This document shows, one piece after another, positions 4,953 to 7,611 of a DNA stretch of 32,538 nt. Source of the DNA: Diploschistes diacapsis. Lineage: Eukaryota. The DNA lies in the NCBI GenBank assembly GCA_023645945.1, contig JALAIB010000102.1:1-32538 (forward strand). Reading direction: 5' to 3'. Both the position numbers and the translations under genes were made by a program. Each line of letters starts with the position of its first letter. The stretch's first letter is position 1. The notes under the pieces are model-generated. The model was given only the letters and a program-made list of their open reading frames with translations. It ran no database searches and was not told the origin of the DNA.

Positions 4953-5675
4953 CTATATTTCTTGCAGCTGTGGCGCAAACTCCCTCCGCATTGCATCTTG
5001 CACCATCTGCCCGCAAAGCTTTGCAGTTGGATTGGTGTGAACTGCCAGCCCTTTTGCGACCTCATTACCATATCTTCCACCCATGAAGAAATCTCTGCTT
5101 GCTGCTTCAGCTAGATCCACCGCGGCAAATCCGCGTAACGAAGGGACGATGACCTTTAGGCATGGATTGGATATGGTGGCCTTTGACGCACCATGAAGGA
5201 GGGCCCCTCTCTGCGTATGGGCTTGACCGAGGGTTCGAGCTTGGGGTGGGGATACTGCGGCCTGGGGATTTGACGGAGTAAGCAGGGAGATGGCCTTGTT
5301 CAGGGAGTCGAGTGTCCTAGAGGCAATATCTGCAGTTGCTGTTGAAGCGACGAGAAGCTGGTCACCAAACTGCAGGCGCACGATTTGGGCGTAGTCGTTA
5401 AGGAGGGACGCGGACTCTGGGTACGACTCCAGCAAGCTTTCAAGATCCGCACGCCCTTGCTCAAGACCTTGTGTTCGTAGTTGGGGGGAATTATTCAATA
5501 TCGATTCGACGCTTCGGATGATGTGTTTCTCGTATTGACGGATTTTCAGCCGTATCTCATTGTTCTGCACAACCGGATCTTCTGGCAGGGACGGGTCGAT
5601 GACCACATTGCCCGAGGGAGCAGCTTCGGGGTCAAAGATTTGAGCAAGAACGGTGTTGTCGTTTGAGGTCAGCAT
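4953..5675 (-). CDS. hmgX: TTC36-like tetratricopeptide-repeat protein; probable HmgX (HppD accessory factor)
   Basis: Intronless 240-aa ORF. The motifs NDNTVLAQIFDP, PESASLLNDYAQIVRLQ, QAHTQRGALL, ASRDF and NPTAKLCGQMV match TTC36-family motifs as I recall them. It lies divergent from hppD, and hmgX flanks hppD in Aspergillus. The symbol is assigned by synteny. Confidence 0.75.
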   Translation of the reverse strand: MLTSNDNTVLAQIFDPEAAPSGNVVIDPSLPEDPVVQNNEIRLKIRQYEKHIIRSVESILNNSPQLRTQGLEQGRADLESLLESYPESASLLNDYAQIVRLQFGDQLLVASTATADIASRTLDSLNKAISLLTPSNPQAAVSPPQARTLGQAHTQRGALLHGASKATISNPCLKVIVPSLRGFAAVDLAEAASRDFFMGGRYGNEVAKGLAVHTNPTAKLCGQMVQDAMRREFAPQLQEI

Positions 5676-6321
5676 GGTGATGTTCTATTCCAAAGCGTTC
5701 AATTACACAACGACTCGGACACCAGATTGGGAGTTGAGACGGAAGACGTTCAGAATTGGGAGAGCTTGACACGACGGCAAGGAGATAGCGGCTGAGGCAG
5801 GCAACCATAGTCGTCGCTTATCACAGCCCATTGATAAGGATTTAGCCATCATGGATATCAACGCTTCGTAAAAGATCGTCCAGAAAGGGAAGAAAATCCC
5901 GGTCCCGGAGGTGATAGCCGTCCGAACAAGGTGGGTATGCACGGACCATAACCCGCGTCTAGCCTTCCCATTTGGTGTACAACAACCGCGAATAACCGAG
6001 TGGCTATCAAGATCGATCTCGAATCAAAAGGGATCATACCCTAGAAGCATAAAACGTAAATCAGAGATCTTCAACAATCTCGGCTGCTGGCAGAGATGGC
6101 GTGCTTTAGAGGAGACCGTGAAAGCCGCAGGGTACCGCTCTCGGGTATCACTCCGACAAAGAGCCGTCAAACCACAATCCCGCCCCTTTCCATCAATGGG
6201 CAGATGGCCATTTGTATAACGTGGAGCGTAACACGAGATTATCATACTCCGTTTGATACTTTCAACATATCTTTCATAGACCTTCGACAACCTCTAATCT
6301 ATTCTTTCAATAGAGCAAAAT
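5676..6321. promoter_or_regulatory. Bidirectional promoter of hmgX-like/hppD with CGG/CCG triplet pairs (candidate Zn2Cys6 sites)
   Basis: CGG-N9-CCG at 5906..5920, CGG-N8-CCG at 5942..5955 and 6142..6155, and CCG-N7-CCG at 5986..5998, all between two divergent start codons. Confidence 0.5.
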
Positions 6322-7611
6322 ATGGCACCATCAGCTATTTCACCTGCCATTCTCGCCAGCGATGGAACCCTCCATTCGTCTAATGGCTCGACAAGGAGCG
6401 GCAGCGGATACAGAGGCTATGATCACATAACCTGGTGGGTAGGCAATGCAAAGCAAGCAGCAGCGTTTTATACCATGCGAATGGGATTCAGCCTCGTTGC
6501 AAAACGTGGTCTGGAGACGGGCTCCAGGTTGTTTGCCTCTCATGTAGTCTCGAACGGAGCCGCCACCTTCGTACTCACCTCGCCCCTACGCCCGGCTGGT
6601 GCTGCCAACGAAAGTGCTTCCTGGGCAGACAAACAGTTACTGGAAGAGATGCATGCCCATCTGAAGAAGCATGGGGACGCGGTGAAAGACGTCGCTTTCG
6701 AGGTGGATAACGTGTACGGCGTGTATGAACAAGCCGTTGCGAGGGGCGCGGAGTCGATACAAGCTCCAACAGTCTCTATGGACAAGCAGGGTGAGGTTGT
6801 GACCGCTGTGATTAAGACCTATGGCGACACGACGCACACTCTGGTCGACAGATCAGGATATCATGGAGTTTTCTTTCCGACCTACCGTGCAGTCGACCCT
6901 CTCGCAGATCCTATAGGAAAGCTTTTGCCTCCCGTACAGTTCGAAGCCGTCGACCATTGTGTTGGCAATCAGGATTGGAACGAGATGGAAACCGTCTGCA
7001 ACTAGTGAGTCATTTCGAGGAGGCTATCCCCGTAGTGCGCCACAAATTGACAAAGCAACAGCTATGAAACCTGCCTTGGGTTTCACCGCTTCTGGTCGGT
7101 GGATGATAAAGACATCTGCACGGACTACTCAGCTCTCAAGTCGGTAGTCATGTCTTCGCCAAATGAAGTTGTCAAGATGCCAATCAACGAACCAGCAGTC
7201 GGAAAGAAGAAGTCCCAGATAGAGGAGTATGTCGATTTCTATGACGGAGCAGGCATACAACACATTGCGATCAGAACCAAGGATATCATACAGACGGTAA
7301 CGAATATGAAGGCTCGTGGGGTTGAATTCATCAGTGTCCCATCGACTTACTATGACACCATGCGCATGCGCCTAAAGGAGAGTGGGATGACTTTGAACGA
7401 GGACTTCATGACTATCGAGGAACTCAGTATTCTTATCGATTTTGACGAGGGCGGATACCTCTTGCAGCTCTTCACAAAGCCGTTACTGGATCGACCCACC
7501 GTCTTTATTGAGGTTATCCAACGCAACAACTTCAGTGGCTTCGGCGCCGGCAACTTCAGGGCTTTGTTCGAAGCAGTAGAGCGCGAACAAGAGGAGCGAG
7601 GCAATTTGTAG
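6322..7611 (+). CDS. hppD: 4-hydroxyphenylpyruvate dioxygenase; exons 6322..7004 and 7062..7611
   Basis: Motifs [63 protein letters not shown] and GFGAGNF. Intron 7005..7061 (GTGAGT...CAG) restores [16 protein letters not shown]. Confidence 0.97.

Follow-up and report, generated by a model that had tools for sequence, protein, structure and literature searches.

A divergent hppD-hmgX gene pair in Diploschistes diacapsis

In the 32.5-kb stretch of DNA from the lichen fungus Diploschistes diacapsis analysed here (the window), an hmgX-like gene lies head to head with hppD, the gene for 4-hydroxyphenylpyruvate dioxygenase (HPPD; HppD in fungi, HPD in mammals). The hmgX-like coding sequence (4953..5675, minus strand) is intronless: in the translation of open reading frames, the stop-to-stop frame is open at 4953-5684, and the first ATG, at 5675, yields a product of 240 residues (P0001), encoded by 240 codons (4956-5675) followed by a TAG stop (4953-4955). 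A divergent intergenic spacer of 646 bp (5676..6321), presumably an active bidirectional promoter shared by both genes, separates it from hppD on the plus strand. The hppD gene starts with the ATG at 6322 and is composed of exon 1 (6322..7004), which holds 227 codons and two bases of a split Tyr codon, a 57-nt intron (7005..7061, GTGAGT...CAG, of the GT..AG type, with in-frame TAG and TGA codons at its start), and exon 2 (7062..7611), which encodes the C-terminal catalytic barrel and ends in ...REQEERGNL, with the stop codon at 7609-7611. Length and spacer agree exactly with the first-pass annotation of this DNA, which had described a 240-residue gene diverging from hppD across 646 bp.

In the Pfam search, exon 1 of hppD matches Glyoxalase (1.5e-06) and HPPD N-terminal (9.4e-06), while exon 2 matches Glyoxalase (4e-11). 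Exon 1 has 1360 database relatives, the best with 70% identity and many named 4-hydroxyphenylpyruvate dioxygenase. The spliced junction restores a block that is conserved in the consensus of 59 aligned fungal HppDs, and the C-terminal motif R-E-Q-x-x-R-G-N-L is nearly invariant in the same alignment.

The hmgX-like gene is assigned to the Pezizomycotina HmgX family

The word-indexed protein database contains 518 sequences related to P0001 at E<=1e-3, the best with E 2.9e-99 and 70% identity, and the hmgX-like gene is therefore real. The best relatives, 62-71% identical, come from lichen-forming fungi and from lichen or rock metagenomes. When the exhaustive library, clustered at 50% identity, was searched with a profile made from 113 relatives, 605 clusters matched, of which 189 reached E<=1e-30. 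The best 150 of these 605 matches are 133-608 residues long, mostly 226-290, with some fragments among them; by inspection, most bear an N-terminal ND/xxxL..FDPE peptide and a C-terminal NP.A..C, and a subset bears a ..YASxxNNRAQ helix.

One metagenome locus, L055 (L055:3166-9888), contains a tyrosine-degradation cluster in the order hppD(-), hmgX homologue(+), hmgA(-), fahA(+) and GST-type maiA(-), the last three assigned through the Pfam families HgmA_N/C, FAA_hydrolase_N/C and GST_N. The same order, hppD-hmgX-hmgA-fahA-maiA, is given for Aspergillus and Penicillium in the account of the cluster by Greene 2014. P0001 aligns over its full length to the L055 protein that occupies the hmgX slot (BLASTP, 39% identity, E 3e-46), and because of this homology we place the window gene in the Pezizomycotina HmgX family, by way of the L055 slot protein and synteny rather than of the Aspergillus protein. 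The identification as hmgX, first proposed from the position beside hppD, is thus upheld by this homology and by synteny across loci. Like the window gene, HmgX of A. fumigatus (AFUA_2G04210) and of Penicillium (Talaromyces) marneffei is encoded by a small, intronless gene divergent from hppD over a shared promoter; the section on the gene in Keller 2011 (PMC3203155) gives an intronless hmgX transcript of 771 bp and a bidirectional promoter in most ascomycetes.

The head-to-head pair is retained while other neighbours change

A metagenome scan gave 80 loci with a P0001 homologue, all of which were searched with an HppD protein by tblastn. Fifty of the 80 extend 1200 nt or more beyond the homologue on its upstream side and are informative; the other 30 are too short there. 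In 40 of the 50, the upstream sequence holds hppD on the opposite strand, with the two protein matches 436-1422 nt apart; in none of the 80 loci did tblastn place hppD downstream or on the same strand. When loci were collapsed at >=97% nucleotide identity, the head-to-head pair was present in 33 of 35 informative clusters, the exceptions being a group of nine near-identical loci and the single locus L074 (1345 nt of flank). In the nine-locus group (L059-L063, L066, L068, L072 and L073; e.g. L060:2950-5714), the homologue is 37% identical to P0001, and a cytochrome P450 gene lies upstream of it on the same strand. The homologue of this group may represent a copy not linked to hppD, or a paralogue that serves a different client. 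Adjacent NCBI locus tags were found for the pair in three lichen fungi: Circinaria calcarea (Q9187_001839/40), Varicellaria rhodocarpa (MMC14_003608/09) and Agyrium rufum (MMC25_002737/38).

Most of the metagenome loci other than L055 keep the hppD-hmgX pair without the rest of the tyrosine cluster, and their downstream neighbours vary among ribosomal L27e, RTA1, P450 and LtrA genes. The window resembles them. Unlike the HmgX loci of Aspergillus and P. marneffei, it contains no hmgA, fahA, maiA or hmgR within 32.5 kb, as judged by a Pfam scan, and since the pair stands alone in this respect, hppD and hmgX behave here as a minimal two-gene module, as the first-pass annotation had suggested.

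P0001 has five conserved motifs and a predicted TPR-like fold

P0001 contains five motifs, all of which had been picked out in the first pass: N5-D6-x-x-V9-L10-x-x-I13-F14-D15-P16 (residues 5-16), P86-E-S-A-S-x-x-N93-x-x-A96-Q97-x-x-R100-L-Q102 (residues 86-102), Q151-x-x-x-Q155-R156-G157-x-L159 (residues 151-159), A192-x-R194-D195-F196 (residues 192-196) and N215-P216-x-A218-x-L220-C221-x-x-M224 (residues 215-224). In an alignment of 113 sequences, the columns of D6, L10, D15, P16, P86, A89, N93, A96, Q97 and R100, and likewise those of Q155, R156, A192, D195, F196, N215, P216, A218, L220 and C221, are invariant or conserved in at least 90% of members. Because the motifs coincide with such columns, they are real conserved features rather than chance resemblances.

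An AF2 model of P0001, calculated with the family alignment as input, is all-alpha, with a mean predicted local distance difference test score (pLDDT) of 89.5 and a predicted template modelling score (pTM) of 0.83; pLDDT falls below 70 only in the first 20 and last 10 residues. The model comprises a short helix (4-14), a long helix (39-59), three helix pairs (64-84/89-103, 115-132/143-169 and 185-201/205-214) and a final helix (216-233). In a wide structural search with VIA-align, tetratricopeptide repeat (TPR) proteins account for most of the 50 best rows, over model residues ~37-229. Among them are Sgt1 (5an3, Z 12.2, root-mean-square deviation 3.6, 126 residues aligned), STI-1 (4gco, Z 11.7) and the TPR1 domain of Hop (1elw, Z 11.2), and CHIP, PP5, Sgt2 and Hip are found as well. 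The TPR domains of these co-chaperones (Sgt1, Hop/STI1 TPR1 and TPR2A/B, CHIP, PP5, Sgt2 and Hip) share the architecture of P0001, with Z 10.6-12.2 and 113-140 residues aligned, at 8-15% sequence identity and without a significant sequence match; P0001 differs from them by two long insertions and by its own conserved N- and C-terminal motifs. Pfam TPR models score below the gathering threshold in a minority of 143 relatives (TPR_17 in 11/143 at E<=0.01, TPR_16 in 5 and TPR_11 in 4), and none scores above it in P0001 or in these 143 relatives. On the basis of the model, we interpret P0001 as a diverged TPR domain of three repeats that has two long insertions and its own conserved motifs at either end. 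The TPR-like fold anticipated from the letters alone is in keeping with the three modelled helix pairs and with structural neighbours that are TPR domains at Z 10-12.

In a single-sequence search of the PDB with P0001, PanZ/YhhK appeared at E ~2; this match was judged to be due to chance.

Genetics ties HmgX to HppD, with modest support for binding from complex prediction

The function of HmgX is documented in two fungi. In A. fumigatus, the hmgX deletion accumulates 4-hydroxyphenylpyruvate and produces no homogentisate in culture, nor is any formed in crude extracts when hmgX and hmgA are both deleted, according to the mutant analysis of Keller 2011 (PMC3203155). The same account describes HmgX-eGFP as cytoplasmic, transcription of the cluster as unaffected, and HmgX as a protein without a conserved domain that acts "by a yet unidentified mechanism". 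In P. marneffei, strains deleted for hmgX and for hpdA cannot be told apart on tyrosine, as stated in the growth results of Boyce 2015 (PMC4374905).

Binding of HmgX to HppD was evaluated by complex prediction with a stand-in pair encoded on one contig of Circinaria calcarea, namely HppD P0126 and the HmgX homologue P0050. P0050 shares 48% identity with P0001, and P0126 shares 59% with exon 1 of the window hppD. ESMFold2 gave the pair a score of 0.50 (runs 0.52, 0.49 and 0.50), against 0.00 for the best of three controls, which the tool grades as 'weak support'; at least 66% of contacts are shared between runs, and the partner pLDDT is at least 75. Of 78 solved complexes, 51 reach the pass mark, as do 2 of 108 mismatched pairs. 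At scores of <=0.60, only 5 of the 78 solved complexes pass, and all 4 passing mismatches (of 180) lie in this range; by the tool's own caveat, a pass in this range is likelier to be false than true unless there was good reason to expect the pair in advance. Because the prior from genetics is high, we count the score as modest support for binding of HmgX to HppD. For the interaction with HppD envisaged in the first pass, the prediction amounts to weak support.

The N-terminus of the window HppD reads MAPSAISP (6322-6345, residues 1-8), a strongly conserved stretch of fungal HppD in which M1 and P3 are invariant and A5 is conserved in at least 90% of the 59 HppD sequences, and a variable linker follows. 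An ascomycete-specific N-terminal stretch of HppD is proposed as the HmgX contact in the discussion of HppD sequences by Keller 2011 (PMC3203155), and the peptide MAPSAISP is a candidate for such a contact.

Fungal HmgX and animal TTC36

Three of the 120 listed homologues of P0001, each with E ~1e-43, are named TTC36 or TTC36-like. P0107 is a 'Tetratricopeptide repeat protein 36-like protein' at NCBI, and the UniRef names of P0111 and P0114 begin 'Tetratricopeptide repeat pr...', while NCBI calls both hypothetical. As three homologues carry TTC36 names, annotation pipelines have already made the link between HmgX and TTC36. The five P0001 motifs, including the N-terminal peptide and the C-terminal NPxAxLC, are ones that we take to be present in human TTC36 as well.

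Language-model neighbours in the Atlas were looked up for two fungal members, P0107 and P0346. Unnamed ascomycete clusters come first, followed by a TPR cluster of Zoopagomycota (0.83 and 0.87) and by five TTC36-type clusters of Arthropoda and Chordata, with scores of 0.80-0.86 and 152-171 of 256 features in common. From database names and language-model neighbours rather than from an alignment, HmgX and TTC36 probably belong to one family.

TTC36 (HBP21) resembles HmgX in being a small cytosolic protein, with three TPRs according to a bioRxiv abstract, and in being linked by experiment to 4-hydroxyphenylpyruvate dioxygenase. As laid out in Xie 2019 (PMC6753076), mass spectrometry of HPD immunoprecipitates identified TTC36, and the two proteins co-precipitate in mouse hepatocytes; the association needs the VOC2 domain of HPD; TTC36 limits STK33-dependent phosphorylation of T382, ubiquitylation by PELI1, and HPD degradation; and loss of TTC36 lowers HPD function. 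The claims on which the first-pass annotation had drawn, that hmgX is needed for HppD activity and that TTC36 binds and stabilises HPD, are thus found in the relevant parts of the published work. Three differences stand beside these likenesses. The TTC36 clusters are 180-239 residues long, whereas the fungal proteins have 226-290 residues, among them additional loops and a long helix that precedes the repeats; Pfam TPR_1/TPR_2 is matched in ~90% of TTC36 cluster members but rarely and weakly in the fungal family; and the TTC36 mechanism (STK33, T382 and PELI1) involves animal proteins, while fungal HppD ends in ...RGNL.

The family-level link appears to be largely unpublished. In the literature searched, supplements apart, we found no publication that names both HmgX and TTC36 and none that joins 'tetratricopeptide repeat protein 36' with 'hydroxyphenylpyruvate dioxygenase', and PTHR21405 and IPR038906 are not mentioned among the matching papers listed. 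The main text of Xie 2019 (PMC6753076) is without the words homolog, ortholog, conserved, yeast or fung*, and hmgX is listed merely as a cluster gene in the relevant passages of the 2025-2026 papers sampled. In a paper that brings together TTC36, fungi and tyrosine, TTC36 is the name of a strain. The earlier statement that HmgX has no known family therefore holds for the papers but not for the databases, which already name fungal members TTC36. The hppD-hmgX pair itself is of a known kind. The link to TTC36 at the family level is plausible and largely unpublished, though not entirely novel, since public databases give some fungal members the TTC36 name.

Interpretation and alternatives

On balance we favour, as rather probable, a single reading in which the window gene is an HmgX orthologue, its product is a direct TPR adaptor or chaperone for HppD, and the HmgX family is the fungal branch of the TTC36 family. 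HmgX would be a cytosolic accessory protein in whose absence HppD fails to convert 4-hydroxyphenylpyruvate to homogentisate. It would be built from an N-terminal NDxxVLxxIFDPE peptide, a long helix, three TPR-like pairs, and a capping helix with the invariant NPxAKLCG. As a dedicated adaptor or chaperone, it would bind HppD directly, also in fungi, and keep the enzyme folded, stable or catalytically competent. Both genes would be divergently transcribed from the one 646-bp promoter and co-regulated in D. diacapsis, and from one shared promoter the enzyme and its helper would therefore be made together during catabolism of tyrosine and phenylalanine. The HmgX family and animal TTC36 would then be related by common descent.

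Several observations weigh against this reading. With respect to binding, the complex score lies in the weak band, was obtained by ESMFold2 without family alignments and for a stand-in pair, and came with no interface. Inside macrophages, loss of hmgX and loss of hpdA have different effects, as described in the infection results of Boyce 2015 (PMC4374905), so HmgX is not needed for everything that HpdA does. The nine-locus lineage, together with L074 and its short flank, has a homologue with no hppD within 5 kb.

With respect to the fold, P0001 has no Pfam family: two rows at chance level (E 0.15 and 0.21) were returned, and no TPR family at E<=10. Foldseek against the PDB gave no match at E<=1e-3, the best weak rows being the TPR domains of Hip and Sgt1. 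The single-sequence PDB search gave the chance match mentioned above, and the profile search of the PDB was not significant, its best rows being a predicted anti-CRISPR protein (0.016) and the TPR region of AspH (0.05). For helical repeats, a Z score below ~13, such as the 10-12 seen here, can reflect common arrangement only. In the helix at residues 86-101 (5373-5420), P0001 and its nearest lichen relatives (P0004 and P0025) read LLNDYAQ where most of the family reads xRNNRAQ, so that the lineage of the window has LNDYAQ in place of RNNRAQ; the variant retains N93, A96 and Q97 of this well-conserved helix.

With respect to TTC36, the best 150 of the 605 profile matches, which reach down to E 1e-37, are all fungal and all have the look of Pezizomycotina HmgX. 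All Atlas scores for TTC36 are below 0.9, a range that counts as a lead only; one in three shuffled proteins reaches 0.8. A search with the first 114 residues of P0346, restricted to candidates of 62-200 residues, returned 13 that share words with it and none at E<=10, a result that says little because ~29 bits or more are needed against 5.8 billion sequences. Finally, the tblastn search reported in the homology passage of Keller 2011 (PMC3203155) found no homologue in human, C. elegans or Dictyostelium.

The alternative that survives best is that HmgX acts on HppD as an activity-enabling factor, through loading, protection or reduction of Fe(II) or through positioning of the C-terminal gating helix, with the invariant cysteine of NPxAKLCG involved in the chemistry or in passing on the metal. 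HPPD belongs to the non-heme Fe(II) enzymes. C221 is invariant in the 113-sequence alignment and its counterpart is invariant in the 143-sequence alignment, when only 12 and 3 columns, respectively, are. The absence of homogentisate from the hmgX hmgA double-deletion extracts, in the passage of Keller 2011 (PMC3203155) given above, fits a loss of activity. A single cysteine, however, is no metal site; the structural neighbours of P0001 are peptide-binding co-chaperone TPR domains, not metallochaperones; and the TTC36 mechanism set out in Xie 2019 (PMC6753076) is protection from phosphorylation-dependent ubiquitylation. We regard an activity-enabling factor as unlikely, and the present data cannot separate it from a chaperone.

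A direct partnership could also hold without the family link: HmgX would be a TPR-like partner of HppD related to TTC36 only through the TPR superfamily, the motifs being generic TPR signatures or wrongly ascribed to TTC36, and the database names having spread through weak automated matching. The Atlas scores under 0.9, the 13 candidates of the length-restricted search with none at E<=10, the tblastn passage of Keller 2011 (PMC3203155) without an animal homologue, and the TTC36 name on just 3 of 120 listed homologues all lean this way, as do the parts of the TTC36 literature that describe unrelated roles in cilia/IFT-A and with Hsp70 and c-Myc. However, five of the first seven named Atlas neighbours of the two fungal members are of TTC36 type, among millions of clusters that include many TPR families, and two independent naming sources use TTC36. 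The N-terminal peptide and NPxAxLC lie outside the TPR core, and presumably both are shared with TTC36. Furthermore, an independent experimental tie of HmgX and of TTC36 to the same enzyme, as the relevant parts of the papers report, would be a striking coincidence. A relation through the superfamily only is accordingly held to be improbable, somewhat more so than an activity-enabling factor.

That the adjacency to hppD is incidental, or that the small protein regulates or transports tyrosine catabolites, has in its favour the 2 of 35 informative clusters without an adjacent hppD, one of them with a cytochrome P450 gene upstream, but is very improbable and already largely refuted by the published genetics, given that the head-to-head pair is kept in 33 of 35 clusters while other neighbours change, and that the results of Keller 2011 (PMC3203155) on hmgX place the protein in the cytoplasm, show no effect on transcription and locate the block exactly at the HppD step.

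Spacer sequence and neighbouring genes

Among 37 distinct hppD-hmgX spacers, the commonest 7-mer is AAGCCGA, found in 22. The wider word AAGCCG[ACG] has copies in 31 spacers (loci within L002-L076), often several and in both orientations, and in these spacers it may be the site of a pathway regulator, a Zn2Cys6 factor of the HmgR type. The spacer of the window contains a single copy, AAGCCGC (6122..6128, plus strand). The window as a whole has 10 matches to AAGCCG[ACG], against 9.4 expected; because the word is not above chance here, the copy at 6122-6128 is only a weak lead to a possible regulator site, and we make no claim for AAGCCGC as a regulator site in this window.

The other genes of the window encode RabGAP-TBC, Mus7/MMS22, a diphthamide-synthesis protein, HMGL-like, Gta3, a fatty-acid desaturase and a protein with a fungal-rhodopsin domain. 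Next to the hmgX-like gene, just past its 3' end, the plus strand has two open frames in succession (2891-4480; 257 and 267 codons), neither with a Pfam family; they probably form a single gene interrupted by an intron or a shift of frame. The RabGAP-TBC gene (8427-11462, plus strand) extends over two frames that break at 10226/10227, and the TBC domain continues across the break, which is presumably an intron. A single frame of 2236 codons (13702-20412, minus strand) encodes the protein of the Mus7/MMS22 family (Pfam E 2.6e-146).

Implications

The window offers a clean example of hppD and hmgX travelling apart from the rest of the tyrosine cluster. We tentatively raise the possibility, which goes further than the family link, that HmgX and TTC36 form an ancient opisthokont family whose ancestral main job is one client, 4-hydroxyphenylpyruvate dioxygenase, the shielding from a kinase in mouse liver being derived or partial. 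On this view, the fact that fungi cannot do without the helper for any HppD activity would point to direct involvement in the folding, metal loading or gating of the enzyme. If this is true, TTC36 would be expected to complement an hmgX deletion and fungal HmgX, conversely, to stabilise mammalian HPD, and TTC36 would be a candidate gene for unexplained hypertyrosinaemia. If HmgX and TTC36 are one family, two independent experimental stories would concern the same enzyme-helper pair over roughly a billion years, HmgX would gain a mechanistic hypothesis, and TTC36 would gain a genetically tractable fungal model. Such a family would also argue that HPPD, a target of herbicides and drugs, generally needs a dedicated partner.

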